In this document: positions 838 through 22,762 of the stretch, piece after piece
How the letters are laid out: every line of letters starts with the position of its first letter
Position numbering within the stretch: the first letter of the stretch is position 1
Source of the DNA: a virus
Lineage: Duplodnaviria; Caudoviricetes
Virus record (IMG/VR): IMGVR_UViG_3300020397_000464
Location: 1-28,837 of that record
DNA length: 28,837 nucleotides
Strand: one strand, 5' to 3'
The notes under the pieces: model-generated
Seen by the model: the letters and a program-made list of their open reading frames with translations, nothing else
Told to the model about the DNA's origin: nothing
The model's database searches: none
Program-made: the position numbers and the translations under genes

Positions 838-838
838 T

Positions 839-2538: not shown

Positions 2539-3313
2539 TGTCCGAGAGATAAACAAAGATATAGCTATAAGTTTCATTGAGGAGCATCACTATACACCGA
2601 TGCTCCCAAAACTTACTAAACATTGGTTAGGTGGTTTTGTAGAAGGTGAACTAGTAGCTGTACTTACTCTTGGTTGGGGTACACAACCCAAACAAACAAT
2701 CAAAAAATTATTTCCACATCTAGATACAAAAGATTATTTTGAGATTGGTAAAATGTGCTTAACAGATGAAATGCCTAAAAATAGTGAGACACAATTTTTA
2801 AAAATGGTAAAAAAATGGATTCAAGAAAATACAGATATTGATTTACTCTATACTATGGCTGATGGTATTATGGGTAAAGCTGGGTATGTGTATCAGGCTT
2901 TCAACTTTTTTTATGGTGGAAAATTTAGAACAGCTGTTTATAGAGATACAATAACAGGAGAAAAAATACACCCACGAACAGCGAGAAAGTTATGTGAAGA
3001 GAACGCAATCTTTCTACAAAAAGAACGAGTTCATTGGTTGACTCCTGATTATATGAAAACTAAAAACTTAGAGAGAATAGATGGCTTGATGTTCAGATAT
3101 ATGTTACCAATGAACAAGAAAGCCAAGAAACATTTTAAGAAGTCTACAGTTGACTGGACTTTAAATTATCCAAAACACAAAGACATAGAGTTTTGGAAAC
3201 AAATAGAACTAGGTAAATACGAGAAGATGGCAGATTGGCCTGTATTTACTTTTGACAATATGAAATATAATAAAAAGATGTCAGGTGGTAGACTTGACGA
3301 ATTTATGACTTGA
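2528..3313 (+). CDS. Mom-like GNAT-fold putative DNA base-modification protein
   Basis: HHY, EIGKMCL..MPKNSETQFL and LYTMADG..GKAGYVYQAFNFFYGG resemble Mu Mom-family motifs. Confidence 0.65.
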   Translation: MLFNVREINKDIAISFIEEHHYTPMLPKLTKHWLGGFVEGELVAVLTLGWGTQPKQTIKKLFPHLDTKDYFEIGKMCLTDEMPKNSETQFLKMVKKWIQENTDIDLLYTMADGIMGKAGYVYQAFNFFYGGKFRTAVYRDTITGEKIHPRTARKLCEENAIFLQKERVHWLTPDYMKTKNLERIDGLMFRYMLPMNKKAKKHFKKSTVDWTLNYPKHKDIEFWKQIELGKYEKMADWPVFTFDNMKYNKKMSGGRLDEFMT

Positions 3314-3323
3314 GGATAAGATC
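3294..3323 (+). promoter_or_regulatory. Sigma70-type promoter with GATC overlapping -10
   Basis: TTGACG-N17-TAAGAT(C), with gp44 ATG 6 nt downstream. Confidence 0.7.
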
Positions 3324-3328
3324 TAATT

Positions 3329-4267
3329 ATGAGTGAAGAATTTTTATGGGTGGAGAAATATAGACCTAAAACTATTTCAGAGTGTATCTTACCTGATACT
3401 ATCAAAAATACCTTTCTTGATTTTGTAAAGAACAAAGAAATACCTAATTTATTATTATGTGGTACGGCTGGTGTTGGTAAAACTACAGTAGCTAGGGCTT
3501 TATGTAATGACTTTCAAGCTGACTATATTTTAATTAATGGTTCAGAAGAAAGAAATATTGACACACTAAGAGTTAAGATAAAGAACTTTGCTTCTACTGT
3601 ATCTTTATCTGGTGGTCCAAAGATAGTCATACTTGATGAAGCTGATTATCTAAATGCACAATCAACTCAACCAGCGTTGAGAGGTTTCATAGAAGAGTTT
3701 TCTAAAAACTGTAGATTCATATTTACTTGTAATTATAAAAACAGAATTATACCACCTCTACATTCAAGATGTAGTGTCATAGACTTTACTATTCAGAATG
3801 ACCAAAAGCCTATGATAGCTAATATGATATTTCAAAGAATACTTTTGATTCTAGGTTGGGAAAATATTAAATCAAATGACAAAGTTGTAGCTGAACTAAT
3901 TAATAAGTTCTTTCCTGATTTCAGAAGAGTTCTAAACGAACTACAAAAATATTCAGCGAGTGGTAGTATTGATTCAGGCGTATTAGCCAATCTTGACGAC
4001 CAATCTCTAACAGAAATAATTGGTTATCTCAAGAACAAAGAATTTTCTAAAATGAGAAAATGGGTAGCTATGAATATTCATAATGACCCACAAGCGATAT
4101 ATAGAAAACTATATGATAGTTTTTTCAACCTATTAGAAAACAGGTCAGTACCACAATCAATAATTATATTAAGTGATTACTCTTATAAGTCTGCATTTGT
4201 AGCCGACCAAGAAGTAAATATGGTGGCTTGTCTAACTGAATTGATGATGGAAGCTGAGTTTAAATAA
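3329..4267 (+). CDS. 44: Clamp loader large subunit (T4 gp44)
   Basis: LWVEKYRPKTI, Walker A GTAGVGKT, Walker B ILDEAD and the SRC motif. Confidence 0.97.
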   Translation: MSEEFLWVEKYRPKTISECILPDTIKNTFLDFVKNKEIPNLLLCGTAGVGKTTVARALCNDFQADYILINGSEERNIDTLRVKIKNFASTVSLSGGPKIVILDEADYLNAQSTQPALRGFIEEFSKNCRFIFTCNYKNRIIPPLHSRCSVIDFTIQNDQKPMIANMIFQRILLILGWENIKSNDKVVAELINKFFPDFRRVLNELQKYSASGSIDSGVLANLDDQSLTEIIGYLKNKEFSKMRKWVAMNIHNDPQAIYRKLYDSFFNLLENRSVPQSIIILSDYSYKSAFVADQEVNMVACLTELMMEAEFK

Positions 4268-5544
4268 TGGAACCTTTTGTTAAAAAACAATATGATGAAT
4301 ATCAGGCGAATAGAACTGAGAAAACCATATTATCTAAAGATGAACTAAGAGATAGAATTATAAAAGATTTATCTCAAGTTTCAAAAATGGGTGTTGGTGA
4401 ATATACTCTCTATCAAAAATATCTAGAAATACATATGAGATATCCGACTCAAGATATCGGTACTTTATTTGGCGAAGAGAAACAATTAGTAAATGAATCT
4501 CATTTAAAATTAATTAATGAAACAAAAAATAACATATGGTTTCCAGAAGACCCTATGGATTTTGAGAAGTTAGAACCAGAACTAGTTTATACAGATAGTC
4601 TCAAAGATAAAAGGTCAGCTGGTACACTTACTGAAAAATGGAACTGTATTCGAACATTTACCTCTACAATGAAAAATAGTTCAAACATAGGCCGTAATAT
4701 GCATTACATAGTAAGAGATAAAGTATCAGGTAAATATCTTGGTGTTATTTGTATTACAGGTGATTTTATTGATTTAACACCTAGAGATAATTACATTGGT
4801 TGGGAAAGAGAATACAAAACGAATAGTGGTAAACTAAATCATTCATGTATCGGCTCTACAATAGTACCTTTACAACCTCTTGGTTTTAATTACACAGGTG
4901 GTAAACTACTCGCTTTACTTTGTCTATCAGATGATATTCAAAAACAATGGGAAGAAAACTATGGTAATAAACTTGTAAGTGTAACAACTACATCTTTATA
5001 TGGTAAATCAAAGACAGGTGGTTTATCTCAGTATGATAGACTCAAACATTGGAAGAAAATGGGTTACAGTAAAGGCTCTTTATCATATGAGTTAACAAAA
5101 GAAACAGAAAAAGAAATGTTGAATTACGCTGAAGAACATTTTAACGAAAAGTATTTTTTACTTTATGTTGCGAAGAGAGAGAATGGCCAAACTCTAAAAA
5201 GAGACCATAGAAATAGAATGAGACAAATGATGTATTCGAAACTTGATATACCAAAAGATATTCAAAAGTCGGACCATCAAAGAGGTATTTACTATTCACC
5301 ACTTTATGATAATACCTGTGAGTTTTTAAGAGGTGAGATAGAAGAAGATAGTTTAGTTAAGTCTTTTGATACATCTACAGAAGCACTAACTGAATTATGG
5401 AAAGAGAAATACGCGAGAAAAAGAATTACAAATTTAATTAATAATGATAGGATAAATTTAGACGAAACATTATTTTATGATGATGTTTGCTTTCAAACAT
5501 GGGATGAAACGAAGGCTAAATATCTAGGTGAGGTCGGAAGATGA
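4267..5544 (+). CDS. DUF4338/DruA-like GNAT-fold protein (paralog 1)
   Basis: GRNMHYIVRD..GKYLGVI, VPLQPLGFNYTGGKLLALLC, TTTSLYGK and SQYD motifs. Confidence 0.7.
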   Translation: MEPFVKKQYDEYQANRTEKTILSKDELRDRIIKDLSQVSKMGVGEYTLYQKYLEIHMRYPTQDIGTLFGEEKQLVNESHLKLINETKNNIWFPEDPMDFEKLEPELVYTDSLKDKRSAGTLTEKWNCIRTFTSTMKNSSNIGRNMHYIVRDKVSGKYLGVICITGDFIDLTPRDNYIGWEREYKTNSGKLNHSCIGSTIVPLQPLGFNYTGGKLLALLCLSDDIQKQWEENYGNKLVSVTTTSLYGKSKTGGLSQYDRLKHWKKMGYSKGSLSYELTKETEKEMLNYAEEHFNEKYFLLYVAKRENGQTLKRDHRNRMRQMMYSKLDIPKDIQKSDHQRGIYYSPLYDNTCEFLRGEIEEDSLVKSFDTSTEALTELWKEKYARKRITNLINNDRINLDETLFYDDVCFQTWDETKAKYLGEVGR

Positions 5545-6713
5545 GCGAAAAGAGTGGAAGTAATTGGTCAAAAGGACTAATACTTGATAAAAAAGATGCG
5601 ATATACGCAGCGAATAGATTTACAGAGTATTTCAAAAACTTTGAACATATAATTGATTATTTCAAAGAAGTAAAAAAAGAACGAATAGAAAAAATGCCAC
5701 AGCCAATGTTTGGTATGTCATGGGGTGATGATTTCTTTCAGAATTGGGATATGCATCCAGAAGATATGGATTTTGAATTAAGAGATGCTACTAGTGAAAC
5801 ATTTCATCATTATCTTGAGTTAGTAGCTTCTCACCCGAATGAAGCTTCAATACCTGGTAGACATATTAGATATATGTTATATGAAAAGAATACAAACACA
5901 ATAGCTGGTTTTATCAGACTAGGTTCTCCTGTTATGTCGATAAGACCTAGAAATCAGTATCTAGACGGTGTTGTTGGTATGAATGGTAATATATCTCTAT
6001 CAACTTTTAATAAACATAGTATCAATGGTTTTATAATAGTACCAGCCCAACCATTTGGTTTTAATTATCTAGGTGGTAAATTATTAGCTGGTCTTTGTTG
6101 TACGGCAGAAGTAAAAGAACATTTAGATTCTAAGTACGATATGAACACTTGCTTGTTCGAAACAACTTCACTCTACGGTTCGAGCAAGCAGTTGTCGCAG
6201 TATGATGGTATGAAACCATTTATACGATTCAAGGGACTCACCGACAGCAGTTTCTCTCCCAATATGCATGATGGTGTGTTCCTTGACTTTAACAAATGGT
6301 TTACAGAAAAGAATGATGGCGTAAGAATTGTAGACCCAACAGTATCAGGTAGAAAGATGAAAACTCAAATGAGAATGATTTCTATCATTAAACAATCACT
6401 AAAAGAACATGATGAACAAGAATATAAAAAGTTTGTAGAGTTTCATAAAGAATCAACTAATCTAAATGAACAAAAAAGATTCTTTATATCTACATATGGT
6501 TATGAAAATGTTCCACAGATAATCAGAGGTGAAGAGACAGAGTTAAGAAAAGCCCCTAACTTTGATAGATATACTCAACAAGGTATTCTAGATTGGTGGC
6601 GTCCAAAGGCGGCTAGAAGATATGAACAACTTAAAAAAGATGGTAGACTTAAAACTAGTCTTGAAATCTGGTCTGAAACTTTTGATATAGATATATTAAG
6701 AGAAGGCAAATGA
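5541..6713 (+). CDS. DUF4338/DruA-like GNAT-fold protein (paralog 2)
   Basis: PGRHIRYMLYE..IAGFIRLGSP, VPAQPFGFNYLGGKLLAGLC, ETTSLYG and SQYDG. Shares its core with the upstream ORF. Confidence 0.7.
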   Translation: MSEKSGSNWSKGLILDKKDAIYAANRFTEYFKNFEHIIDYFKEVKKERIEKMPQPMFGMSWGDDFFQNWDMHPEDMDFELRDATSETFHHYLELVASHPNEASIPGRHIRYMLYEKNTNTIAGFIRLGSPVMSIRPRNQYLDGVVGMNGNISLSTFNKHSINGFIIVPAQPFGFNYLGGKLLAGLCCTAEVKEHLDSKYDMNTCLFETTSLYGSSKQLSQYDGMKPFIRFKGLTDSSFSPNMHDGVFLDFNKWFTEKNDGVRIVDPTVSGRKMKTQMRMISIIKQSLKEHDEQEYKKFVEFHKESTNLNEQKRFFISTYGYENVPQIIRGEETELRKAPNFDRYTQQGILDWWRPKAARRYEQLKKDGRLKTSLEIWSETFDIDILREGK

Positions 6714-7090
6714 ACCCTTTTGAATTCGTAAATTCGATAACATTTAATAAGAATGATATACTAGAACAAGATGAACTCTTGGAGAAAGAATATGCCCCTT
6801 TCCTAGTCAATCGGAGTCTATCATATCATCAGGACTGTATACTTTTTGCTAATGAAGTGAATAGAAGATTCGATATGCCACACAAGCTTCAATACCACTA
6901 TTTACTAAATAGCATTAGAAAAAGAAAAAGGTTTGCTCAATGGAGTAAACCTGAAAAGATTGACGATTTGAAAGTTGTCATGGATTATTATCAAGTATCT
7001 CGCCAAAAGGGAGAAGAGTATTTAAATATTCTATCTAAAAAACAAATAGGGATATTAAAAAGAAAAATGAGTAAAGGTGGCATGAAATGA
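6710..7090 (+). CDS. 62: Clamp loader small subunit (T4 gp62)
   Basis: Y.PFLVNRSLSY..DCILFANEVN and QYHYLLNSIRKRKRF, located upstream of regA. Confidence 0.93.
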   Translation: MNPFEFVNSITFNKNDILEQDELLEKEYAPFLVNRSLSYHQDCILFANEVNRRFDMPHKLQYHYLLNSIRKRKRFAQWSKPEKIDDLKVVMDYYQVSRQKGEEYLNILSKKQIGILKRKMSKGGMK

Positions 7091-7485
7091 GTTATGACAT
7101 ACAGGATATGCTAGAGGTATCATTCAAAGAGAGTGATGACTTCTTAAAAATACGAGAAACATTAACACGAATCGGTGTGGCTTCAAGAAAAGATAGAACC
7201 CTTTATCAATCTTGTCACATCTTACATAAACGAGGTAAATATTATCTAGTTCACTTCAAAGAACTTTTTGCTTTAGATGGTAAAGAGCATTCTATGAATG
7301 AGAACGATATTGGTAGAAGAAACGCTATAGCTAGACTACTTGAAGAATGGGGTCTAATTAAAGTTGTAGATGAATCAAAGGTCATGAGTCCATGTGCACC
7401 AATGAGTCAGATTAAAGTTTTACCTCATAAAGAAAAGAACGAGTGGAACTTAGTCGCTAAATATAATATTGGCGTCACAAAATAA
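7087..7485 (+). CDS. regA: Translational repressor RegA
   Basis: DDFLKIRETLTRIGVASRKDRTLYQSCHILHKRGKYYLVHFKELF. Confidence 0.97.
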   Translation: MSYDIQDMLEVSFKESDDFLKIRETLTRIGVASRKDRTLYQSCHILHKRGKYYLVHFKELFALDGKEHSMNENDIGRRNAIARLLEEWGLIKVVDESKVMSPCAPMSQIKVLPHKEKNEWNLVAKYNIGVTK

Positions 7486-8550
7486 ATGAAAGCAAAAAGT
7501 TTTAAATCCTTTTTGAAAGAGGACTTTGAACCGTATAAGTTAGTTATACTAACTCATTCTGCTGCAGGTGTTAGAGATACCAAAAGTGAACCCGCAGAAT
7601 CTGGAACAGAACTTCTTAAAAAAGTAGGCAAACAAATAGGTATACAAGTTGAAACTGCAGACTTTGTTGGAGCCTATACGAAAAAAGAAGGTGATAAAAG
7701 ACTTTTATATTCTTTTGAGTTTGACGAAGACGGCGAAGTTCAATTACCTGCTTCAGACGATAGAGTTTTAAAATATCAAAAACCTATAGTATGTGACCCT
7801 AAGAATACAATCATAATGCCTAGAGGTCTAGGTACTCAAGGGTTTACAGCTTCAAGAGGCTGGCTAGATTTAGTAAAAGAATTTGAGTATGACGGATTCT
7901 TCATTGTAAATGATATTGAATCATATGATATTTGTACGAGTAAGTATTTAACTTATGTAAATCTAAAACGATTCGGATTTAGAACTCCTAAAACTGTACC
8001 GATAGAACATTCAGAAGCTGCAGAGGCAGCATTCAAAAGACTCAAGACAGACTTTCCAATTATTTTAAAATCATCTACAGGAACTCAAACAGGTGTAGGT
8101 GTGGTAATTATCGAAAGTATGAGAACATTACGAGCAGTTGTTCAGATGTTATTACTTTACGAAAAATATCTACCACTAATCTTACAAGAATATATAAAAA
8201 CAGATTATGATATGAGAGTTGTTGTATGTAATGGCAAAGTTGTAGGTGGTATTAGAAGAGAGGTTATGTCAGATGATATAAGAAGTAATGTATCATTAGG
8301 GGCAGTAGCAGAACAAATAGAACTTACAGAATTAGAAAAACAAACAGCGATAGATATATCAGATAAATTAGGTCTACATCTAGCAGGTGTAGATTTCATA
8401 CCATCAGAAGACAGAGAAAAAATACCACCATATTGTCTAGAAGTTAACGCAAACTTAGGACTTATGGGTGTCGAAAAAAGAATCGAAGGTAGTCCTACCA
8501 AAAAAATTCTGCAAGAGCTTGGTGACCGAGACTCTTGGAATACTAAATAA
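7486..8550 (+). CDS. RimK-like ATP-grasp ligase
   Basis: FPIILKSSTGTQTGVGV, ILQEYI, DMRVVV, RSNVSLG, AGVDFI and LEVNAN. Confidence 0.85.
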   Translation: MKAKSFKSFLKEDFEPYKLVILTHSAAGVRDTKSEPAESGTELLKKVGKQIGIQVETADFVGAYTKKEGDKRLLYSFEFDEDGEVQLPASDDRVLKYQKPIVCDPKNTIIMPRGLGTQGFTASRGWLDLVKEFEYDGFFIVNDIESYDICTSKYLTYVNLKRFGFRTPKTVPIEHSEAAEAAFKRLKTDFPIILKSSTGTQTGVGVVIIESMRTLRAVVQMLLLYEKYLPLILQEYIKTDYDMRVVVCNGKVVGGIRREVMSDDIRSNVSLGAVAEQIELTELEKQTAIDISDKLGLHLAGVDFIPSEDREKIPPYCLEVNANLGLMGVEKRIEGSPTKKILQELGDRDSWNTK

Positions 8551-8576
8551 TTATACCAATAAAAAAAGGAGAATAT

Positions 8577-8801
8577 ATGTTAAGTATAGACTTTATTAAA
8601 GAATGGTGCATTAATAAGATTGAATACCTCAAGAGTCAAGCTCTGAAAGAGAGAACTTCTTGGGATGGTATAGTAATCATTGCTGTATCAGGTTCAATCA
8701 TTCTTTTTGGCGGTTTAATCAAACTAATCGCCTGGCTAGCTTTAGCCTACGGTATTTACACACTTGTAAAAGAAGAGGGATTTAATCCTCTAGACCATTA
8801 A
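8577..8801 (+). CDS. Small membrane protein
   Basis: AGGAG SD, a late-promoter-like CTAAATA at 8543-8549, and ERTSWDG followed by a hydrophobic hairpin. Confidence 0.75.
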   Translation: MLSIDFIKEWCINKIEYLKSQALKERTSWDGIVIIAVSGSIILFGGLIKLIAWLALAYGIYTLVKEEGFNPLDH

Positions 8802-9166
8802 TGATAGAAGTAACAGATGAGGCAATTACTAAACTTCTTCAAAAACAAAAAGAAGAACGATTTAGTCATATACGGCTTGGAATCAAGGGGGGTGGTTGCG
8901 CTGGTTTTGAGTATGTTTTTGCTGTTGATGATATTGGAGATGATGATATAGTTTTAGACTATGGTAAATGGAGTTTTATCATCAATAAAATATCTGTTCC
9001 TTATATTAATGGTATGACTTTAGACTATGTTAAAGAAGGTCTAAATGAGTTTTTCAAGTTTATAAATCCAAAAGAACAATCTTCATGTGGATGTGGTGTC
9101 AGTATCAACTTTGATTTGAATGCTGTTGAGGCTGACGAAAAACAAATATTCGCAGTGGAGGTATGA
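8801..9166 (+). CDS. iscA: A-type Fe-S cluster carrier (IscA/HesB family)
   Basis: RLGIKGGGCAGFEY and NPKEQSSCGCGVS. Confidence 0.92.
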   Translation: MIEVTDEAITKLLQKQKEERFSHIRLGIKGGGCAGFEYVFAVDDIGDDDIVLDYGKWSFIINKISVPYINGMTLDYVKEGLNEFFKFINPKEQSSCGCGVSINFDLNAVEADEKQIFAVEV

Positions 9167-9188
9167 TTCTCGAGCAGTCTCCACTGCG
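9151..9188 (+). terminator. Hairpin across the iscA stop codon (terminator or processing stem)
   Basis: Perfect 10-bp inverted repeat CGCAGTGGAG / CTCCACTGCG with only a weak U-tract. Confidence 0.45.
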
Positions 9189-9195
9189 TCTTAAT

Positions 9196-9203
9196 TATAA
9201 ATA
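9196..9203 (+). promoter_or_regulatory. T4 late promoter (gp55-type)
   Basis: Exact TATAAATA in the intergenic region upstream of ORF 9269. Confidence 0.75.
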
Positions 9204-9268
9204 GAGGTATACAAAGGGAGAGATTGAATAAAGTTTTACTATGATTCCCTGCACAATAAGGAAATTAA

Positions 9269-10345
9269 ATGAGGAAACTTTTTTTATCAATTACACTTTT
9301 ATCATTAGCGGGTATAATGGCTGCAGATGATGGTGCGACTGGAACTTGTGACGCAGGTACTCAGTATTGTGAGGCGTTGAATACTACCAACAATACAACC
9401 ACAAATAATACCAACACCAATACCAATACCAACACAAATACCAACACCAATACCAATACCAATACCAACACGAATACCAATAATAATACTAGCGTTAATA
9501 CTAATACTAACACGAATACTAGCACAAATAACAATACCAATGTTAATACCAATAATAATACTTCTACTAGCACTAACACTAATAATAATAACAATGTGAA
9601 TGTTAATACGAATAATAATACTTCTTCTAGTACGGTGAATAGTACAAGTAATAATACTAGTAATGTAACTTCGAATAATACCAACACGAATAATAATAAC
9701 AATAATACCACTTCGAATAATACCAATACGAATAATAATTATAGTGAAAGTAATTCTAATTCGAATGTAAATACAAACAATACAAATACGAATAATACTA
9801 CTTCGGACAATACAAACAGGAACATAAATGAGTCCAAGTCTGAACAAGTAATTACTCAAAACATCAATACAAAAGCTCCACCAGCTTCAGCGATAGCACC
9901 AAGTATCATGAGTTATTCGCAAGATTTATGTACTACTGGTGTTTCAGGAGCATTCCAAGGACAGGTCTTTGGTTTCTCAGCTGGTAAGACAATCAAAGAC
10001 GAGAATTGTGAAAGATTAAAACTTTCTAAGTATCTTTACGATATGGGTATGAAAGTCGCCTCTGTGGCTTTACTTTGTCAAGATGAAAGAGTCTTCTCAG
10101 CTATGCGAATGGCAGGAACTCCATGTCCTTACAAAGGTGAAATCGGACAGAAAGCTTCATATCAATGGGCTAAAAATCCACACGATATGCCAACTTACGA
10201 AAAAGATAAAGAAAAATATATCAAACAATGTAAGAGAGAAAAAGTTGAAAGTGGGCCTAAGAAAGGTGCTAAAAAATCTACTAGAACTTGTAGAAAAGAA
10301 TTTGAAGATTCATTCTATAAAATCAGAAACGATATAGAGGGCTAA
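9269..10345 (+). CDS. Exported Asn/Thr-rich protein with Cys-containing C-terminal domain
   Basis: Signal-peptide-like MRKLFLSITLLSLAGIMA, about 145 aa of N/T low complexity, and a C-terminal PPASAIAPS..CTTGVSG..CERLKL..LCQD..GTPCP domain. Confidence 0.8.
   Translation: MRKLFLSITLLSLAGIMAADDGATGTCDAGTQYCEALNTTNNTTTNNTNTNTNTNTNTNTNTNTNTNTNTNNNTSVNTNTNTNTSTNNNTNVNTNNNTSTSTNTNNNNNVNVNTNNNTSSSTVNSTSNNTSNVTSNNTNTNNNNNNTTSNNTNTNNNYSESNSNSNVNTNNTNTNNTTSDNTNRNINESKSEQVITQNINTKAPPASAIAPSIMSYSQDLCTTGVSGAFQGQVFGFSAGKTIKDENCERLKLSKYLYDMGMKVASVALLCQDERVFSAMRMAGTPCPYKGEIGQKASYQWAKNPHDMPTYEKDKEKYIKQCKREKVESGPKKGAKKSTRTCRKEFEDSFYKIRNDIEG
9380..9816 (+). repeat. Coding low-complexity (AAY ACN)n repeat encoding (Asn-Thr)n
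   Basis: Tandem ACCAAT/ACCAAC hexamers at about 9410-9480, degenerating downstream. Confidence 0.9.
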
Positions 10346-10346
10346 A

Positions 10347-10394
10347 ATGACAAAATGTAAATGTTGTAAATGCTGTGATTGCAGTTGCTGTTAA
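10347..10394 (+). CDS. 15-aa Cys-rich microprotein MTKCKCCKCCDCSCC
   Basis: Fills the gap between two genes, preceded by AGAGGG, and 8 of 15 residues are Cys encoded by mixed TGT/TGC codons. Confidence 0.65.
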   Translation: MTKCKCCKCCDCSCC

Positions 10395-10402
10395 GATGAA
10401 TC

Positions 10403-13446: not shown

Positions 13447-13451
13447 GTATT

Positions 13452-14022: not shown

Positions 14023-14087
14023 ATGTAGATGCTCGAATGAGGTCTACATTTAAATTTAAACTTGCTTAATAATAGGAGAAAAAAATG
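14023..14087 (+). promoter_or_regulatory. ROSE-like RNA thermometer in the hsp20 5' UTR
   Basis: 5' hairpin 14023-14049, then CTTGCT (14061-66) pairing with SD AGGAG (14074-78) with a bulged G. Confidence 0.7.
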
Positions 14088-14537
14088 ACAAGATTAGACT
14101 TATTTGGGCAGTTCAGCCCTTTCACAGTTGGATTTGATAGAGTTTTTGACGAACTAAATCGAGTTCAATCAACATCACAAAGTAATTATCCACCTTACAA
14201 TATTCGTAAAGGTAATGAGGAAGATTCTTATCTCATTGAACTAGCAGTCGCTGGTTTTGGAAAAGATGATTTATCTGTAATGGTCAAAGAAAATAATTTG
14301 ACTATTGAAGGAGATATTTCTCATAAAGATAGTGCCTTTGTTCATCAAGGAATCTCACAAAGAAAATTCTCTAGAAACTTTGTTCTAGCAGAAGATGTTC
14401 TTGTAAAAGGTTCCGATTTATCAAACGGAATATTATCAATATTTTTAGAAAGAGTTGTACCAGAGGAGAAGAAAGCCAGAACTATTGATATAGGGAAGGT
14501 TTCAGCTTCAATGAAGAAACAATTCTTAGCTGAATAA
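14085..14537 (+). CDS. hsp20: Small heat-shock protein (Hsp20/IbpA family)
   Basis: VGFDRVFDEL, NYPPYNI, IELAVAGF, HQGISQRKFSRNF and NGILSIFLER. Confidence 0.95.
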   Translation: MTRLDLFGQFSPFTVGFDRVFDELNRVQSTSQSNYPPYNIRKGNEEDSYLIELAVAGFGKDDLSVMVKENNLTIEGDISHKDSAFVHQGISQRKFSRNFVLAEDVLVKGSDLSNGILSIFLERVVPEEKKARTIDIGKVSASMKKQFLAE

Positions 14538-14544
14538 TAGTGTG

Positions 14545-14737
14545 TTGGGTGCTTTCTTGCTGGAGAGCATATAACATTAATCGAGTTGAAGGCCATCAAC
14601 TCAACGGAGGGACAGAGCCTGATAGGAACTCATAATTGGCACCCGAATAGAGAGCACTAAAATTTAGTTTCAACCACACTTGGTAGTGTGTCGGGCGAAT
14701 TAAGTAGCCTGAACAGAGAGCACCCAAGTGTGGTTGA
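14545..14737 (+). ncRNA. Structured intergenic RNA element of unknown class
   Basis: GC-elevated region with no convincing ORF. 13-bp closing stem 14545-57/14715-27, internal hairpins, and a competing perfect 14-bp inverted repeat 14670-83/14724-37. Confidence 0.55.
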
Positions 14738-14762
14738 CAATATTAGATTATGGGTATAGGAT
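14734..14762 (+). promoter_or_regulatory. Sigma70-type promoter
   Basis: TTGACA-N17-TAGGAT, with GTG start 6 nt downstream. Confidence 0.7.
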
Positions 14763-14768
14763 GCATAA

Positions 14769-15062
14769 GTGATTGGAAATTATAGTAAAGAAGAATTAGA
14801 AAAATCAAAAAGAATATTTAAATCAGCAACACCAAAGTATACACCTGATTGGTATATAAAATGGATTGCTAGTGTTTTCGTGCTTGTCGCTATGAGTATT
14901 CGTGGTGTAGAAGAATATATAATGTATGATTTATATCTCTCAACTATAGGTATTTCTTTATGGTTAATTGTATCAGTTTTATGGAGAGACAGAGCTTTAA
15001 TAATGTTAAATGGGGCAGGTCTTTTATTTTTAATTCGTAATATTTTTCAAAATTTATTATGA
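14769..15062 (+). CDS. Small membrane protein (3 TM)
   Basis: DWYIKWIASVFVL...LWRDRALIMLNG. Confidence 0.75.
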   Translation: MIGNYSKEELEKSKRIFKSATPKYTPDWYIKWIASVFVLVAMSIRGVEEYIMYDLYLSTIGISLWLIVSVLWRDRALIMLNGAGLLFLIRNIFQNLL

Positions 15063-15514
15063 AAGAATTTGATTACAGTTTAGATTATAAAAATACTTTG
15101 TTTGAGCCTAATGATTATAGATATAGAATAGGCAGAGGAGAACAAGGCGTATTATTAGTTAGACCATATACAGATGATATCTGTAAACATTGGAAATTTA
15201 AAACACCTAAGATAGCAGAAAAATCAGCTAGAGTAATTACAGAAATGTTTTTTGAATATCTTTATGAAGATGATTTTGTTGGCATGGATATGTGTCGTAA
15301 ATTTTTAGAAATGGGTTTTACAAGGTCTAGAAGATACGCGAATCATAAAGACGGTAAAAAATACGATAAATATGGAAACATATTACCTCAGGAGAAAGAT
15401 TGGGCTACAAGTGATAAAGCTATATCTGCTAAAATATTCAAAGTCTACAGAGACTTAGTTGCAAAAAATGAAATCTATCAAAAAAGAAGAAAAGCTTGGC
15501 GAGAGAATGAGTGA
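15059..15514 (+). CDS. DUF4385-like protein
   Basis: YRIGRGEQGVLLVRPY and DFVGMDMCRKFLEMGFTRSRRYANH. Confidence 0.8.
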   Translation: MKEFDYSLDYKNTLFEPNDYRYRIGRGEQGVLLVRPYTDDICKHWKFKTPKIAEKSARVITEMFFEYLYEDDFVGMDMCRKFLEMGFTRSRRYANHKDGKKYDKYGNILPQEKDWATSDKAISAKIFKVYRDLVAKNEIYQKRRKAWRENE

Positions 15515-15875
15515 CGGCAAAGAATTAGATAAATACTATCCATTATTTGATGATGGATTATATACCGAAGTCGTTCATGAAACAGGCGAAAGAGGTATAC
15601 AAATATTGAAAGGCGATTATAAAGATGTTGTCTTTCAGTATGGTAAAATAGAATTTGTTCCTAGAGAAGAATCGGAAACACCGAGTATAAACTTTGATAG
15701 GGCGATAAGGAAATGTCCACCTGATTTAATTGATACCATATCAGAGGACAAAACTTTTAATCAGCTAATGGGTGATATATTAATTGAACTCTTAGCTAAT
15801 CAAGGTATCGAGGAGTATAACAATGCAATACAGCGACAACTTCATGAAGAGACTCCGAGAGGAGATAATAGCTGA
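15507..15875 (+). CDS. Hypothetical phage protein
   Basis: I.ILKGDYKDVVFQYGKI motif. Start moved to ATG 15507 to minimise overlap. Confidence 0.7.
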   Translation: MSDGKELDKYYPLFDDGLYTEVVHETGERGIQILKGDYKDVVFQYGKIEFVPREESETPSINFDRAIRKCPPDLIDTISEDKTFNQLMGDILIELLANQGIEEYNNAIQRQLHEETPRGDNS

Positions 15876-16290
15876 CGAAGGAGAAGTCCTTCATGTTTAT
15901 TTGGACCATTTAGGTTATGAGACAGTTGGCGTAGGACACTTAATTAGACCAGGTGATGCTGAACATGGAAAAGGCGAAGGCTTTCAGATTACAAAAACCA
16001 GGTCAGACGAACTATTATTCCAAGACTTAAATATTTGTCTAGAGGAATGTGAACATCACCTAGAAAGGTGGGAACATTATTCAGAGGAAGTTAAACTCAT
16101 TTTAGCCAATATGGCATTTAATTTAGGTATTACTAAATTGAAGAAGTTCAAAATGATGTTTTTAGCGATTGACTCTGGAGATTATGTAAGAGCTTCAGAA
16201 GAGGGCCTTGACTCTAGGTGGGCTAAACAAGTCTACAATAGAGCTAAAAGGTTGATGAACCGTTTGCGTGATGCAGACATAGAAGAGTAA
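15823..16290 (+). CDS. e: T4-type lysozyme (GH24)
   Basis: Catalytic E-x8-D-x5-T in DEGEVLHVYLDHLGYETVGVGHL, plus NMAFNLG and DSRWAKQV..RAKRL. GAGGAG SD. Confidence 0.92.
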   Translation: MQYSDNFMKRLREEIIADEGEVLHVYLDHLGYETVGVGHLIRPGDAEHGKGEGFQITKTRSDELLFQDLNICLEECEHHLERWEHYSEEVKLILANMAFNLGITKLKKFKMMFLAIDSGDYVRASEEGLDSRWAKQVYNRAKRLMNRLRDADIEE

Positions 16291-16300
16291 GGAGTAAATT

Positions 16301-16516
16301 ATGTTTTTTTCATGGTTTAAAAAATTATTTGTATCTGAACCTAGTGGCGTGAGAGCGAAAGACAAAAGAGGTAGATTCGTAGCTGACGACCCTAATACAC
16401 CAGATGTAAATGAAGCTTATGTTGATGGTAAAAAACCAAAATCAAAAGCTAAAGCCAAAGCCCCAGCTAAGAAGAGGGGAAGAGGAAGACCTAAAGGGTC
16501 AAAAAATAAAAAATAA
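16301..16516 (+). CDS. Small basic protein with AT-hook-like tail
   Basis: GRFVADDPNTPDVNEA and KRGRGRPKGSKNK. AGGAG SD. Confidence 0.8.
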   Translation: MFFSWFKKLFVSEPSGVRAKDKRGRFVADDPNTPDVNEAYVDGKKPKSKAKAKAPAKKRGRGRPKGSKNKK

Positions 16517-16530
16517 GGAAAAATTTTATA

Positions 16531-16743
16531 ATGAATTATTTGTTTCAAGCTTTATTAAAAAAATACGAAGGCGATATAGAGACTGCTAAGGCAAATCTAA
16601 AAGTCTATGAGAGTAACCCAGCTGGTATCGGAGAACATCCAGATATAGTTGAAGCTATGGATACTCAGGTAGCTAAAATCGCTGAAGCTGAAGATAAGAT
16701 TTCTGTTATCAAAAAACATTTTGAACCTCAGAAAGTTGTATAA
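16531..16743 (+). CDS. Conserved phage hypothetical protein
   Basis: NPAGIGEHPDIVEA motif in a helical hairpin. Confidence 0.8.
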   Translation: MNYLFQALLKKYEGDIETAKANLKVYESNPAGIGEHPDIVEAMDTQVAKIAEAEDKISVIKKHFEPQKVV

Positions 16744-16749
16744 ACTATC

Positions 16750-16779
16750 TAGACAAAATACAACTTTTATGAGATCATA
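16750..16779 (+). promoter_or_regulatory. GATC-containing promoter of DNA polymerase
   Basis: TAGACA-N17-GATCAT, with ATG 6 nt downstream. Shares a 17-mer with 22383-22399. Confidence 0.6.
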
Positions 16780-16784
16780 AGAAT

Positions 16785-19283
16785 ATGCACTTTTATACAA
16801 ATGTTTATAGATATAGAGATTACATTTTAGCTAGAGGTTACAGAAACGGTAAACCTTTTACAAACAGATTAAAGTATCAACCAACTTTTTATGTTTCTAC
16901 TAATAAACCTTCGGCTTTCAAAAGTATTCATGGTCATAACCTAGAACCTAAAAAGTTCCCAAGTATGTCAGCGTCAAGAGCTTGGCGTGAAAAGTATGAC
17001 AATATTGGTGGCTTTGAAGTTCATGGTCTTGATAGATTTGAATACACATATATTAATGAAAACTTCACTAGTGATATTGAGTTTGATTTTAATCAGATTA
17101 AAATATTAAATTTAGATATCGAGTGTGAGTGTGAAGAAGGTTTTCCAGAACCTTTGAAAGCTGAAGAGAGAGTAAATGCTATTAGTATGAAACTCTTTGG
17201 TCATGATACTATCTATGTTTTTGGCATAGATAATCATGACTATCAGACAAATGACCCGAATGTAAAATATTACAAATGTCAGCATGAGAAACATCTATTG
17301 TTGACTTTTCTAGATGTTTGGGAACAGATTTGTCCTGATGTGGTGACTGGTTGGAATGTTCTAAACTTTGATATAGCTTATCTAGTTAATAGAATGAAAA
17401 AACTCTTTGATGAAGAGACTGTAACAAGATTATCTCCACATAGAATTATTACATCTAAAAACTGGAAACATATGGGTCAACAAGATATGGTTGACTACAA
17501 CTTAGCTGGTATCGAGGTACTAGACTATCAAAAAATATTCAGATATTTTACATACACAAACCAAGAAAGTTATAGACTAGACCATATCGCTGAAGTTACG
17601 ATTGGTCAGAAAAAACTAGACTACTCAGAGTTCGGTGCGATGCATCTTTTCTACAAACACGATTATAATAAATTCTTAGATTATAATGTGCGTGATGTAG
17701 TTCTAGTTGAAAAGATAGATGATAAATTAAAACTTATGAATCTATTATTTAATCTAGCTTATAGTGCTAAATGTAACTATTCAGATACTTTTGGCCAAGT
17801 TAAGTTTTGGGACTTATTGATATATAACTTCTTGAGAAAAAAGAATGTTGTTCCACCACCAAAAGTAAATACAGGTGACGCACAAAGTTTCGCTGGGGCT
17901 TATGTCAAAGAACCTCAAGTTGGTTTACATGAATGGGTTATGTCTTTTGATTTAAATTCATTATATCCACACTTAATCATGCAGTATAATATTTCACCTG
18001 AAACACATCATAAAGAAAAGTTTGATGGTGACATAACTGTAAATAAATTATTAAAAGAAGAAGTAGATATCAATCTACAAAATCTAACTGTAACACCGAA
18101 TGGTTCTATGTTTGATACCACAAGTCAAGGTTATCTACCTGAACTTCTAGAAGAACTATATGACGAAAGAGTTTACTTTAAAAATAAAATGATTGAGTCA
18201 CAAAAACAATTTGAGAAAGTTACAGACCCAAAAGAAAAGAAAAGACTAGAATATGAGATTACAGCCAATCATAATAATCAACTTGTTAGAAAAATTTGTT
18301 TGAACTCAGCTTATGGGGCGATAGGTAATCAATGGTTTAGATATTACAATAGAGATATGGCTGAAGCTATCACTACAGCTGGTCAATTAAGTATCAAGTG
18401 GGTTGAGAAAGCTGTTAATGAGTTTCTTAATAAAGTCTTAAAGACTGATAACAAAGATTATGTAATCGCGATTGATACTGATTCTATCTATGTTACTTTT
18501 GAAGAATTAATTAAACAAGTAAATCCAAAAGGCGACAAGATTGATTTTCTAAATAGAACTGCGAAAGAGGCGATAGAGCCTGTAATCGAAGAATGTTATG
18601 AGAAGTTGGCTAAATATGTTTTTGCTTATAAAAACAAAATGAGAATGGGTAGAGAAGTCATCGCCGACAAAGGTATCTGGACTGCTAAGAAAAGATATAT
18701 TCTTAATGTATTCGATAGTGAAGGTGTTCGATACAATGAACCTCACCTTAAAACTATGGGTATCGAAACTGTAAAATCTTCAACACCTCAATGGTGTAGA
18801 GGTAGACTAAAAGAAGCTTTGAAAGTTGTAATGAAAGGTAATGAAACAGATGTTCAAAACTTTATTCAAGAAACAAAAGAAGATTTCAATAAACTATCGG
18901 CTGAAGATATCGCTTTCCCTAGAGGTGTTCAGAAAGTTACCAGATACAAAGACAATGCTAAGATTTATAAAAAGTCTACACCTATTCATGTTAGAGGTTC
19001 ATTATTGTATAATCATTATTTAAATAAATATAACATAGAGAAAAAATATCCTGTCATTCAGAATGGTGAGAAAATTAAGTTTTGTTATTTAAAAGTACCA
19101 AATATTATGAATGAAAATGTCATATCTTTTGTAAATGCTTTACCAAAAGAATTTAAGTTAGAGAACTACATAGATTATGATACACAATTTAACAAAGCTT
19201 TTCTGGAACCCTTAGAACTAATTATTGAGAAGATTGGTTGGCATACAGAACCACAAAGTAATCTGGAGTTATTCTTTGGTTGA
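16785..19283 (+). CDS. 43: Family B DNA polymerase (T4 gp43)
   Basis: Exonuclease LDIE, SFDLNSLYP, KICLNSAYG, IDTDS and KKRY, with C-terminal clamp-binding-like SNLELFFG. Confidence 0.98.
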   Translation: MHFYTNVYRYRDYILARGYRNGKPFTNRLKYQPTFYVSTNKPSAFKSIHGHNLEPKKFPSMSASRAWREKYDNIGGFEVHGLDRFEYTYINENFTSDIEFDFNQIKILNLDIECECEEGFPEPLKAEERVNAISMKLFGHDTIYVFGIDNHDYQTNDPNVKYYKCQHEKHLLLTFLDVWEQICPDVVTGWNVLNFDIAYLVNRMKKLFDEETVTRLSPHRIITSKNWKHMGQQDMVDYNLAGIEVLDYQKIFRYFTYTNQESYRLDHIAEVTIGQKKLDYSEFGAMHLFYKHDYNKFLDYNVRDVVLVEKIDDKLKLMNLLFNLAYSAKCNYSDTFGQVKFWDLLIYNFLRKKNVVPPPKVNTGDAQSFAGAYVKEPQVGLHEWVMSFDLNSLYPHLIMQYNISPETHHKEKFDGDITVNKLLKEEVDINLQNLTVTPNGSMFDTTSQGYLPELLEELYDERVYFKNKMIESQKQFEKVTDPKEKKRLEYEITANHNNQLVRKICLNSAYGAIGNQWFRYYNRDMAEAITTAGQLSIKWVEKAVNEFLNKVLKTDNKDYVIAIDTDSIYVTFEELIKQVNPKGDKIDFLNRTAKEAIEPVIEECYEKLAKYVFAYKNKMRMGREVIADKGIWTAKKRYILNVFDSEGVRYNEPHLKTMGIETVKSSTPQWCRGRLKEALKVVMKGNETDVQNFIQETKEDFNKLSAEDIAFPRGVQKVTRYKDNAKIYKKSTPIHVRGSLLYNHYLNKYNIEKKYPVIQNGEKIKFCYLKVPNIMNENVISFVNALPKEFKLENYIDYDTQFNKAFLEPLELIIEKIGWHTEPQSNLELFFG

Positions 19284-19310
19284 CAGGAGAGAAATCTACA
19301 CTAAGATCAT
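19280..19310 (+). promoter_or_regulatory. Sigma70-type promoter with GATC, upstream of uvsX
   Basis: TTGACA-N16-TAAGAT(CAT), followed by a GAGG SD. Confidence 0.65.
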
Positions 19311-19325
19311 TATAGAGGAAATTAT

Positions 19326-20369
19326 ATGAGTTATTTGAAAAATTTAGTAAAGGCAACAGGAAATGAATTCGCCTCTGTTGTTGAAGAAGGCGTTCAAGCA
19401 GCTGATGTATCAGGATATATTGACACAGGTTCTTATATCTTAAATGCATTATTGTCTGGTTCAATATTTGATGGTTTACCTAATAATAAAATTACAGCAT
19501 TAGCAGGTGAATCTGCTACAGGTAAAACATTCTTTGCATTAGGAATGTGTAAACAATTCTTAGATGATAATCCAGATTCAGCTGTGATTTATTTTGAATC
19601 AGAATCAGCGATTACAAAAGATATGATTGAGTCGAGAGGTATTGATTCATCTAGAATAGTTATTGTTCCAGTTACCACAGTTCAAGAATTTAGAACTCAG
19701 TCTATCAAGATTGTAGACCAGTATATTGAAGACCAATCTGATATGAAGATGATGTTTGTATTAGATTCATTGGGTATGTTATCAACTACAAAAGAAATTG
19801 AAGATACAGCAGCTGGCTCTGAAACAAAAGATATGACTAGAGCACAATTAGTCAAAGGTGCATTTAGAGTATTAACTTTGAAACTAGGTAAAGCTGGTGT
19901 TCCGTTAGTAGTAACTAATCACACTTATGATGAAATGGGTTTATTTGCTAAGAAAGTCATGGGTGGTGGTTCAGGTTTAAAATATGCAGCTTCATCTATT
20001 GTTTTCTTATCGAAGAAAAAAGAAAAAGACGGTAAAGATGTTATTGGTAATATCATTCATTGTAGAAATGAAAAGTCTAGATTAACTGTAGAACATAAAA
20101 TGGTAGATGTTCTTTTACACTATGAGTCTGGTTTAGATAGATATTATGGTCTTCTTGATTTAGCATTGAAGTATGGTATATTTAAGAAGAACGGCACTAG
20201 AGTTGAATTACCAGATGGTACAACGCAGTTTGGAAAAACTATAAACAATGAACCTGAGAAATATTTTACTCAAGAGGTTCTAGAATTAATTAATGAGGCA
20301 GCGAAGAAAGAGTTTTTATATGGCATTGACAATAGAGCAGACGATTCTCAAGAATCTGATTCAGAATGA
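19326..20369 (+). CDS. uvsX: RecA-like recombinase UvsX
   Basis: [13 protein letters not shown], Walker [16 protein letters not shown] and MGGGSG. Confidence 0.96.
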
Positions 20370-21702
20370 TGAATTTATCCGAAAGACCTTACCTTTCATA
20401 AAAGAAGAGTTCTTTCAGGAAAGACAAGAACAATTTATATTCAGAGAGATAAAAGAATACTTTATGAAGTATTCGGCTAGTCCTACATCTGAAGCATTAC
20501 TTATCACAATAGACGAGAAAGATAATATTGACTCTCAACTTATGGGTGATATATCTAATTTACTCAAGATTGTTGGTGATGATACAGAGAAAACACCTTA
20601 TGATTGGTTGTTAGATACTTCCGAAGAGTGGTGTAAAGATAGAGCTATCTATAATGGTGTCATGGACTCTATAGAAATTATTCGTGATGAATCTAGAAGT
20701 AAAGGTGATATACCTGAAATATTAAAAGACGCTTTATCTACATCTTTTGATAGTAATATTGGTCATGATTTCTTAGAAGACTATGAATCTAGATTTGATT
20801 TTTATCATACAGAAGAAGAGAAGATACCTTTTGATTTAGAAATGATGAATAAAATTACAAAAGGTGGTTTACCTAATAAGAGTTTGAATATTTGTATGGC
20901 AGGTACAGGTGTAGGTAAATCTTTGTTTATGTGTCATATGGCTTCCAGTTGTTTACTACAAGGTAAAAATGTTTTGTATGTGACCATGGAAATGGCTGAA
21001 GAAAAGATAGCAGAAAGAATAGACGCAAACTTACTAGACATATCTCTTAATGATTTACAAGATTTACCAAAAGAAATGTATGATAGAAAAATCAAGAGAG
21101 TTAGAGACAAGACAAAAGGTAAATTAATTATCAAAGAATATCCTACAGCTTCGGCTCATGTAGGTCACTTGAGACACTTACTACAAGAACTGAGTCTCAA
21201 GAAAGATTTTGTTCCAGATATGGTGTTCATAGATTATTTAAATATATGTGCTTCATCTAGAGTAAGACCTGGTGGTCAAGTGAATACATATTCATATGTT
21301 AAAAGTATAGCCGAAGAAATGAGAGGTTTGGCTGTAGAGTTTGATGTACCAATCATGTCAGCTACTCAAACAAATAGAACAGGTTTTGTATCTACAGATA
21401 TTGGTCTTGAAGATACTTCTGAATCCTTTGGTCTACCAGCGACTGCAGACTTTATGTTCGCTGTTATGTCAACAGAAGAATTACAAGAATTAGACCAAAT
21501 TATGATTAAACAACTAAAGAATAGATACAATGACCCTACATACAATAGACGGTTTGTCCTCGGTATTGACCGAGCAAAAATGAGACTGTATGATTGTGAA
21601 CAATCTGCACAAGATGAACTCATAGATACAGGTCCTGTGATGGATAATTCTGAAACAGGGGCTAGAATGCAGTCTGAAAAAATGGATAACTTCAAATATT
21701 AG
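20320..21702 (+). CDS. 41: Replicative DnaB-like helicase (T4 gp41)
   Basis: [33 protein letters not shown] and KQLKNRY. Confidence 0.97.
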
Positions 21703-21710
21703 GAGGCATA

Positions 21711-22259
21711 ATGATTGGAGATTTCAATGAAGATAGAAACTACATGCTAGGTGTTGGTAATGAGTTTCCTGATATATTTCTACAAGGTGTTGATGAAAAC
21801 AATAGTATTGTAGAGATATCAAATATGTCAGTACCAGAAGGTGATAACTGGCAAGTAATATTTTTCTATCCAAAGGACTTTACTTTCATATGTCCTACAG
21901 AGATAGCTAAAATGGATAAACTCATAGACGAGGGAGTTAGTGTCTTTGGTATTAGTGGTGACAATGAGTATTGTAAACTTAATTGGAAACAAACTAACGA
22001 CCAGATAAAAGATATTAGATATCCTCTATTAGCTGATTGTGGTTTAAGATTAGCTGGGGAACTAGGTATAGTGAATACTAGTGAGGGAGTTTGTTATAGG
22101 GCTACTTACATAGTAGACCCCCACAATATAATTCAGCATGTATCAGTAAATGAACTGGACACTGGTAGAAATGTTGAAGAGATAATCAGAACCGTTAAAG
22201 CCCTTCAGGCTGGTGGTAAAACTGGCTGTGATTGGGAACCAGGTGATGATTTATTATAG
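21711..22259 (+). CDS. ahpC: 2-Cys peroxiredoxin (AhpC family)
   Basis: FFYPKDFTFICPTE and GRNVEEIIR, with C-terminal GCDWEPG. AGGAGG SD. Confidence 0.93.
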   Translation: MIGDFNEDRNYMLGVGNEFPDIFLQGVDENNSIVEISNMSVPEGDNWQVIFFYPKDFTFICPTEIAKMDKLIDEGVSVFGISGDNEYCKLNWKQTNDQIKDIRYPLLADCGLRLAGELGIVNTSEGVCYRATYIVDPHNIIQHVSVNELDTGRNVEEIIRTVKALQAGGKTGCDWEPGDDLL

Positions 22260-22331
22260 TCGATTTTAATCGGCCAGGCTGGTCAGGTATACATGGTACA
22301 GCCGCCTTCGAATAAGTAAATGTCGAAATGT

Positions 22332-22355
22332 AGAGGCCCTAAGGGGCCTCTTTTT
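22332..22355 (+). terminator. Rho-independent terminator
   Basis: AGAGGCCC-TAAG-GGGCCTCT followed by a T-run. Confidence 0.9.
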
Positions 22356-22368
22356 CGCGCTAAAAAGC

Positions 22369-22399
22369 TTGACTCCGAGGCTACTTTTATGAGATCATA
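22369..22399 (+). promoter_or_regulatory. GATC-containing promoter driving a non-coding region
   Basis: TTGACT-N18-GATCAT, with a 17-mer identical to the gp43 promoter. Confidence 0.65.
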
Positions 22400-22404
22400 T
22401 ATAC

Positions 22405-22747
22405 ATAATTTCGTGTGAAGGAATTCTCCGTTAAGTTGGTTGGAGGTTGAGGAGAAAAAAGACGAAGTAAGATTTCTTTTCTATATTGATTTATAGTTGG
22501 AATAAAACCTATTAAGACGAGGTAAGGCTCTTACAGGAAATCTTGAATAGTAGTCTGAAATGGTCTGATGAAATTTATGTTTAGTATCGGGATTCAGGTA
22601 AAACGAACTCACATTATAGTGGACAGGCCGAAACCACTTAGATAAAAAATAGAGCGTAAGAAATTGGGGTAGTACCCAAGAAATTGAAAAGAGACTAATT
22701 CTAAACAAAAAGCGAGGTAGTAGGGGTTGAAACCCCGCTACTTTTTT
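22405..22747 (+). ncRNA. Putative ~340-nt structured ncRNA
   Basis: Own promoter and terminator, no sizeable + strand ORF, and nested stems. Confidence 0.6.
22717..22747 (+). terminator. Rho-independent terminator overlapping the next promoter
   Basis: GTAGTAGGGGTT-GA-AACCCCGCTAC followed by TTTTTT. Confidence 0.7.
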
Positions 22748-22757
22748 GTGTATGATC
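22727..22757 (+). promoter_or_regulatory. Sigma70-type promoter with GATC
   Basis: TTGAAA-N18-TATGAT(C), with TGTG just upstream of the -10 and ATG 22763 six nt downstream. Confidence 0.65.
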
Positions 22758-22762
22758 ATAGT

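Follow-up and report, generated by a model that had tools for sequence, protein, structure and literature searches.

The transposase promoter pIN of IS10 has one GATC, which lies across the 3′ edge of its sigma70 −10 box in a TATGAT-C arrangement, and this promoter and that of IS50/Tn5 were reportedly described as Dam-sensitive by Roberts et al. in 1985 (cited in PMC10073500). At Mu mom, several GATC sites lie in a regulator-binding region and Dam methylation controls the promoter, and in the GcrA/CcrM system of Caulobacter the short adenine-methylation word GANTC is said to mark a subset of sigma70 promoters. The promoters of pap (Lrp), agn43 (OxyR) and P22 gtr (OxyR) are described as having several GATC sites in regulator-binding regions and heritable ON/OFF states (PMC13076061). 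In Mycobacterium tuberculosis, motifs of the methylases MamA and HsdM which overlap the edges of SigA −10 boxes are described as modulating transcription, with four promoters measured (PMC7591249). Phages are also described as avoiding restriction sites, for example by GANTC depletion in pelagiphages, and GATC as being methylated in some marine viral genomes (both PMC9516812); among marine prokaryotic metagenome-assembled genomes (MAGs), GATC is given as the commonest methylated motif (PMC8919816). Here we analysed IMG/VR record IMGVR_UViG_3300020397_000464 (the window; 28,837 nucleotides), part of the genome of a T4-like myovirus from the sea, known without cultivation, from which GATC is missing in the coding DNA (27,436 bases) and remains only in the non-coding DNA (1401 bases), at predicted promoters.

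The window includes the replication genes gp45, gp44 (clamp loader), gp62, regA, gp43 (DNA polymerase), uvsX and gp41. The phage has the core replisome genes of T4-like myoviruses (gp43, gp44/62, gp45, regA, uvsX, gp41 and gp46/47) and TATAAATA late promoters. Its gp43 shares 49% identity with that of the nearest isolate and 63–66% with the nearest uncultured clade, and nothing was found between this clade and the species itself. From the CheckV completeness of relatives we estimated a whole genome of ~180 kb, of which ~42 kb was covered by the window and flanks from other assemblies; promoters were counted over 38.5 kb, comprising the window and a 9.7 kb left flank (L548, a metagenome contig of the same species). 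Longer contigs of the species include CEVB01014274.1 (54 kb) and VTLG01005649.1 (98 kb), and contigs of up to ~135 kb encode the same AurF-like protein.

Loss of GATC from coding DNA

We found seven GATC sites in the window, at 3320, 13443, 14019, 16773, 19305, 22393 and 22754, where 88 were expected from base composition and 92 from a Markov model. A preliminary description of this DNA had given exactly these positions and an expectation of 80–90. It had also raised the possibility of overlooked coding sites, which can be set aside: across 1..28837, irrespective of strand, the 27,436 coding bases contained no GATC, compared with 66.6 ± 6.5 in 200 synonymous codon shuffles (minimum 50). Aspartate before a codon starting with C was written as GAC, as had been noticed, with 45 GAC-C junctions and a sole GAT-C which is the 22754 site and an artefact of an over-long open reading frame (ORF) start at 22727. 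GATC is not the only purged word: ACGT (0 observed, 25 expected) and CCGG (0 and 8) were also absent from the window and GCGC was largely purged (3 and 15). In coding DNA, both ACGT and CCGG were again at zero, against 36.6 and 11.4 in synonymous shuffles.

The coding purge is still enforced by selection. When the window was compared with strain loci L545, L547 and L002, GAC to GAT differences numbered 0/40 before C versus 36/132 elsewhere, and ATT/ATA to ATC differences 0/77 after G versus 18/433 where no G precedes; it should be noted that the sites compared in L545 overlap to a large extent with those in L547. A single coding GATC was present as a strain variant, in L547 (one of its six sites). 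GGATG was considered as a second purged methylation word and rejected, as its count (18 versus 27 expected) is not that of a purged word. GATG/CATC was abundant (211), which puts a SATC-type motif, as named in PMC8919816, beyond the reach of a depletion test. The hexamer TAAATA, which forms the core of T4 late promoters, was one of the most depleted when both strands were counted (51 versus 74).

Relatives were compared at loci with gp43 at 49–66% identity, and among these the GATC purge was patchy, many lineages lacking the word and others having it at a normal frequency. On a quick gp43 tree (75 rows of 191 near-full-length sequences, after dereplication) the purged state required 11 changes, 10 of them forced by well-supported branches, and the phage was sister to a mostly unpurged clade. 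Each lineage among loci L001–L208 purges its own set of four-base palindromes, drawn from ACGT, CCGG, GCGC, GTAC, GATC and GGCC, and close relatives can differ in this respect, for example L136 and L145 for GATC.

A lead to the host came from the AurF-like gene of the window, homologues of which, at ~60% identity, were present in 140 of the 151 genomes of one small-genome marine gammaproteobacterial order; this was the only taxon tested, and closer homologues reach 80%. This order is probably SAR86. Iron–sulphur (Fe-S) assembly genes from marine viruses, of which some are T4-like, have been linked to Gammaproteobacteria, and one virus to SAR86, in PMC5332604. Assigning a host from MAG labels was rejected, as the labels were scattered and look like binned phage contigs, and an Atlas lookup for the host returned viral clusters only. 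In streamlined marine gammaproteobacterial genomes we observed a patchy set of DpnII-type (L601), two-methylase plus PD-(D/E)XK nuclease (L603) and AlwI-type (L611) loci. Such restriction–modification loci in the candidate host order offer a plausible cause for the purge, which is likely to be ordinary restriction avoidance, given its repeated appearance on the tree and the DpnII-type systems of this order. The window fits such avoidance in that short palindromes are rarer than codon and amino-acid bias would make them and selection is continuing; it departs from it in that sites were not lost irrespective of context, GATC having been gained and kept in promoters.

GATC at predicted promoters

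The seven sites represent no excess in number over the 4.3 expected in the non-coding DNA, and it is their position which is non-random (P ~ 6e−7 or less for random placement in non-coding DNA). All are intergenic and begin 23–28 nucleotides after TTGAC, TAGAC or TTGAA, as the preliminary description had stated. The promoters were partly recognised with the sites already known, so the test outside the window weighs more than this P value. In the left flank we found four further GATC sites, all in the bubbles of three promoters; the ~3 kb right flank (L290) had none. Over the 38.5 kb there were therefore 11 sites, compared with 124 expected, all at promoters. The same sites were present in independent assemblies. 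The region is also covered by four DNA runs, each from a different study, and of the 380 differences in these the 40 listed all left GATC intact. That the pattern is due to chance or faulty assembly, a reading to which the partly retrospective recognition of promoters lends something, is already largely refuted by the four new sites, the assemblies and the runs, and we give it almost no weight.

Promoters were predicted from consensus, gene-start geometry and orthology, and those described here for the window lie on the plus strand. Six of the seven sites overlap a predicted sigma70 −10 box, in two registers. In the first class the hexamer TAAGAT or TATGAT is followed by C. It comprises the promoters of gp44 (3294..3331; TTGACG-17-TAAGAT, GATC at 3320–3323, leaderless ATG at 3329, 6 nucleotides past the −10), of ORF 13452 (13416..13454; TTGACA-18-TAAGAT, GATC at 13443–13446, leaderless ATG at 13452), of uvsX-gp41 (19280..19310; TTGACA-16-TAAGAT, or -19-GATCAT, GATC at 19305–19308) and of the HAD/5′-nucleotidase gene (22727..22765; TTGAAA-18-TATGAT, GATC at 22754–22757, leaderless ATG at 22763). 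In the second class the hexamer is itself GATCAT, with an extended TG; here belong the promoter of gp43 (16750..16787; TAGACA-17-(TG)-GATCAT, GATC at 16773–16776, which is −12 to −9, leaderless ATG at 16785) and that of the 22393 site (22369..22398; TTGACT-18-(TG)-GATCAT, GATC at 22393–22396). The ATG begins exactly 6 nucleotides past the hexamer in four of these six, a leaderless geometry with the same spacing as in the TATAAT promoters of relatives, which identifies the hexamer that serves as the −10. Across the phage group (window and L003–L208) the start codon lies 5–7 nucleotides past the −10 in most sigma70-type promoters, which suggests leaderless mRNAs even for the DNA polymerase.

The seventh site, at hsp20, is where the placement of all sites at −10 boxes in the preliminary description fails. 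Here (14011..14022) CATATATA is directly followed by GATC at 14019–14022, and comparison of orthologous upstream regions identified CATATATA as a variant of the T4 late promoter TATAAATA, which relatives carry at hsp20. Because of this, the TTGAA upstream of the site is probably not a −35 box. A sigma32 reading of this promoter, together with a host inference drawn from it, was dropped for the same reason.

GATC is also not a property of every promoter. Two predicted sigma70 promoters of the window read TAGGATG instead: one at 1557..1595 (TTGACA-17-TAGGAT-G), before the genes for DUF3310, gp45 and a Mom-like protein, and one at 14734..14771 (TTGACA-17-TAGGAT-G, leaderless GTG at 14769), before a DUF6552 gene. 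The L548 flank holds a third, at L548:4362, and TAGGATG occurs only these three times in the 38.5 kb, each time at a promoter. At 1557 it was unchanged in seven strain loci while the spacer varied. As the −10 plus the next base of the GATC-free promoters, it may define a second promoter class. Of the 12 predicted sigma70 promoters over the 38.5 kb, nine have GATC at the −10 or in the melted region, three have TAGGATG and none has TATAAT.

Among strains of the species (90–100% identity) the promoter GATC was invariant while spacers changed. The gp44 promoter was identical in L545, L547, L548, L209, L210 and L211, and a tRNA promoter kept GATCAT between strains though most of its spacer had changed. 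One flank promoter reads TAAGATC-N-GATC-ATG, where N is G, A or T in three strains and the second GATC lies wholly in the discriminator. Each promoter has one GATC (two in this one), all within about −12 to +1 and without GATC clusters. Past base 3759, L209 switches inside gp44 to GATC-rich sequence of another phage (L209:3760–4111), an assembly chimera or a recombinant, and this 3′ end was left out as chimeric. Motif scans of the viral collection for more of this genome, one of which covered 40 of 64 parts, returned only the known contigs and unrelated matches, and RNA runs gave only short, scattered, low-depth contigs with no start information.

Conservation did not extend beyond the species: promoter GATC was absent from all more distant relatives tested. 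Lack of conservation in relatives, which the preliminary description had named as a refutation, is borne out by half, since it holds for these relatives but not for the strains. Among 137 distinct leaderless promoters of relatives, fully purged lineages included, none contained GATC, 93 read TATAAT and one had a C after the hexamer. In purged relatives one GATC was left in a total of 93.7 kb and none in another 61.5 kb, with no site at a promoter, and the GATC left in partly depleted lineages lies in coding DNA. At orthologous positions, the gp43 promoter reads TAGACA-17-TATAAT in the sister clade versus TAGACA-17-GATCAT here, the HAD promoter TTGAAA-18-TATAAT-A versus TATGAT-C, and the promoter after gp43 reads TATAAT or TATACT in the sister clade. 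A screen of all loci to L414 found no full promoter placement of GATC outside the species; seven other low-count rows passed its loose filter, and the sites inspected in these were coding. Across 10 records of purged relatives TTGAC-N14-24-GATC was found a single time, within a coding region, and four large records gave one chance-like match. We infer that promoter GATC was gained on this branch in place of TATAAT, and it appears to have been selected. The earlier argument that restriction avoidance alone cannot explain the promoter sites is upheld, as they were gained where relatives have TATAAT, do not vary among strains and recur outside the window.

It could be that the GATC is a by-product of a move to a host, or of a demand on promoter strength, which favours TAnGAT or GATCAT, and that it is tolerated since RNA polymerase shields or melts the site against restriction. 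TAAGAT, TATGAT and TAGGAT are acceptable sigma70 boxes (consensus TAnnnT), three promoters lack the C, and the number of non-coding sites is, as given above, near the neutral expectation. However, a C follows all five TAAGAT/TATGAT boxes of the species but only 1 of the 137 in relatives, and neither the discriminator GATC nor the one at hsp20 falls within a sigma70 hexamer. TTGAC-N17-19-TADGATC was also not enriched in 41 genomes of the candidate host order (21 versus 56 in a reversed control), a weak test given that perfect TTGAC-TATAAT is rare there as well. We consider a by-product distinctly unlikely.

Methylation and other possible readers of the GATC word

We tentatively favour, at slightly less than an even chance, that the GATC-bearing promoters respond to adenine methylation of GATC much as pIN of IS10 does, and that the purge is a separate layer of avoidance. 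In the first layer, coding DNA would have been purged to escape restriction systems of the host that cut at GATC, as happened in sister lineages which lost every site. In the second, later layer, TATAAT would have become TAnGAT-C or TG-n-GATCAT, placing methylatable adenines at −11, at −8 or in the discriminator. The packaged genome would carry the mark of a GATC methylase, most likely one encoded in the unseen part of the phage genome or else one of a host restriction–modification system, and adenine methylation would act directly on sigma recognition or on melting. Marked parental promoters would then fire at entry and the unmarked replicated copies would be weaker, so that early and middle transcription would dim once replication starts. 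The TAGGATG promoters would stay insensitive, one of them feeding the gp45 clamp which late transcription needs. The direction of the effect is a guess, and the reverse, promoters silenced by methylation, comes close to it in likelihood; we favour active marked parental copies because such a system would reset itself at packaging. The two layers are compatible if a small cost per site keeps the coding DNA clean and a larger benefit keeps the promoter sites, and a −10 register which varies by 3 nucleotides between the promoter classes would be more easily reconciled with a chemical effect on melting than with a stereospecific activator.

Several points weigh against a role for methylation. No methylase, GATC-labelled nuclease, GATC reader or GcrA-like gene was found among the scanned ORFs (~42 kb of ~180 kb), so that the dam gene which the preliminary description had proposed to look for did not turn up in this part of the phage. 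Five relatives with partial records had no D12 methylase in these, and one of the five had a single weak match to an N6_N4 methylase. In the candidate host order just 8 of the 81 genomes had a D12 methylase above the cut-off, with no housekeeping Dam apparent; the best-scoring genes sit in DpnII-type or AlwI-type restriction–modification loci, as do those with the clearest context in restriction–modification systems, and two more lie next to no recognised nuclease gene. None of 41 incomplete genomes from this order yielded SeqA, and sequestration by SeqA, which involves phased GATC clusters and a host seqA, finds neither here. Methylated virion DNA would not need a purge against DpnII-type enzymes, so the model has to assume a further cost for each site. 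GAT is common to the −10 boxes of all 12 promoters, the three GATC-free ones among them, and would not be expected there under a methylation model; the hsp20 GATC belongs to a late-type promoter and lies outside any sigma70 hexamer. The promoters are predicted and not mapped, and GATC-free consensus-like matches inside genes, such as TTGACC-17-TATGAT-T at 21566, could be real promoters. Finally, the 22393 promoter would, in strains L002 and L289, drive a 1-kb non-coding element of which 1012 bases are absent from the window.

Alternatively, a phage sigma appropriator, activator or repressor might read GAT or GATC in the bubble independently of methylation, either separating phage promoters from the TATAAT promoters of the host or shutting phage promoters off later, with the purge preventing its titration. 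The loss of TATAAT from all 12 promoters and the GAT common to their −10 boxes, TAGGATG included, fit such a protein, as does the lack of a methylase in the scanned ORFs, and about three quarters of the genome, unseen, could encode it. On the other hand, GATC is found in at least three registers (−12, −9 and −4) and behind a late-type promoter, an arrangement difficult to reconcile with stereospecific recognition by one factor. Methylases and nucleases are the typical readers of a four-base palindrome, lineages without such promoters show the same purge, and no candidate factor was seen. We place this reading on the unlikely side.

The clamp-loader cluster around gp44 contains a Mom-like gene (2528–3313, plus strand; PF25680) and two tandem DruA-like genes (4267–5544 and 5541–6713, plus strand; PF14236). 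Homologues of both kinds adjoin replication genes in many relatives and are candidate adenine-hypermodification enzymes. If they put bulky groups on adenines, promoters might have moved critical adenines into a GATC context which is spared or blocked beforehand by methylation, and both the position of these three genes and the loss of TATAAT from every promoter accord with this. Relatives with Mom-like or DruA-like genes nevertheless keep TATAAT, TATACT or TATCAT, whether GATC is purged or not. We rejected such modification as the driver, since it does not track the pattern across relatives, and hold it to be quite improbable.

A wider proposition, possible but doubtful, is that a lytic phage runs its early and middle transcription on a one-word epigenetic code, with the methylation state of each genome copy (parental or new) deciding the output of replication proteins. 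It would amount to a replication-coupled switch without a dedicated repressor. The prevailing view is that T4-like phages time their genes through proteins which redirect RNA polymerase, and a methylation-word regulon would be a different link of transcription to replication or to host methylation. In lambda, replication is described as too fast for Dam to keep up, which leaves only half of the DNA methylated, and T4 is described as encoding a Dam of its own (PMC10644984). Even if the signal is not methylation, the branch-wide change from TATAAT to GATC-containing −10 boxes would point to an unknown reader or sigma modifier.

Neighbouring features and comparison with known systems

The non-coding RNA which had been placed behind the 22393 site is only partly supported: the predicted element exists in L002 and L289, and what remains in the window is 321 nucleotides without a folding signal (z 0.20). 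The element (L002:5392–6403, insertion point at window position 22409) contains, close to its 5′ end, a sequence like the T-arm of a tRNA, and also has a terminal hairpin. It may represent a large non-coding RNA of the phage; an RNA-run contig carries its 3′ junction. Neither the 1-kb element (E 0.1) nor 22405–22725 had an Rfam match. The element was also found in a distant locus (L198:12547–13426, 87% identity), where it has a TATACT promoter and one internal GATC, while the copy in the species has GATCAT and no internal GATC.

A T4 late promoter without GATC, TATAAATA, lies at 9196..9203 on the plus strand, and a second late-like sequence, CATAAATA, at 23462–23469. Downstream of the former, 9269–13254 encodes an Asn/Thr low-complexity protein (358 amino acids), a very acidic protein (801 amino acids) and a coiled-coil-like protein (148 amino acids), for which no Pfam matches were found. 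Further genes of the window include hsp20 and those for an Fe-S carrier, AhpC, a RimK-like protein and the AurF-like protein.

Compared with described systems, the promoters resemble pap, agn43, gtr and mom in that GATC in a promoter region is proposed as a methylation signal. The analogy to pap, agn43 and mom in the preliminary description nevertheless concerns the wrong subtype, one in which Dam and a regulator compete for GATC sites that lie upstream. Here each promoter has a single site (one promoter has two), inside the melted bubble as in IS10 pIN, with no upstream group of GATC sites and no shared operator. The system also differs from GcrA/CcrM, as GANTC is not depleted (102 observed, 110.6 expected) and no GcrA match was found among the scanned ORFs. 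The M. tuberculosis system, as far as its source describes it, belongs to a host chromosome, with an identified enzyme, a measured effect and a motif which is neither GATC nor purged elsewhere. Restriction-site avoidance is matched by the purge of GATC, ACGT, CCGG and GCGC, by the lineage-specific sets and by repeated gain and loss on the tree, but purged sisters keep no promoter GATC, whereas this lineage placed GATC in its promoters. We found no description, in the open-access full-text literature, of a lytic phage with GATC confined to promoter bubbles. The likeness to IS10 pIN lies in a single GATC which overlaps the end of the −10 (TATGAT-C at 22754) without upstream regulator sites; unlike pIN, the arrangement here extends over at least nine promoters as a putative regulon, in several registers, in a lytic phage whose genome is otherwise stripped of GATC. 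Single GATC-containing −10 boxes and restriction-site avoidance are each already known.

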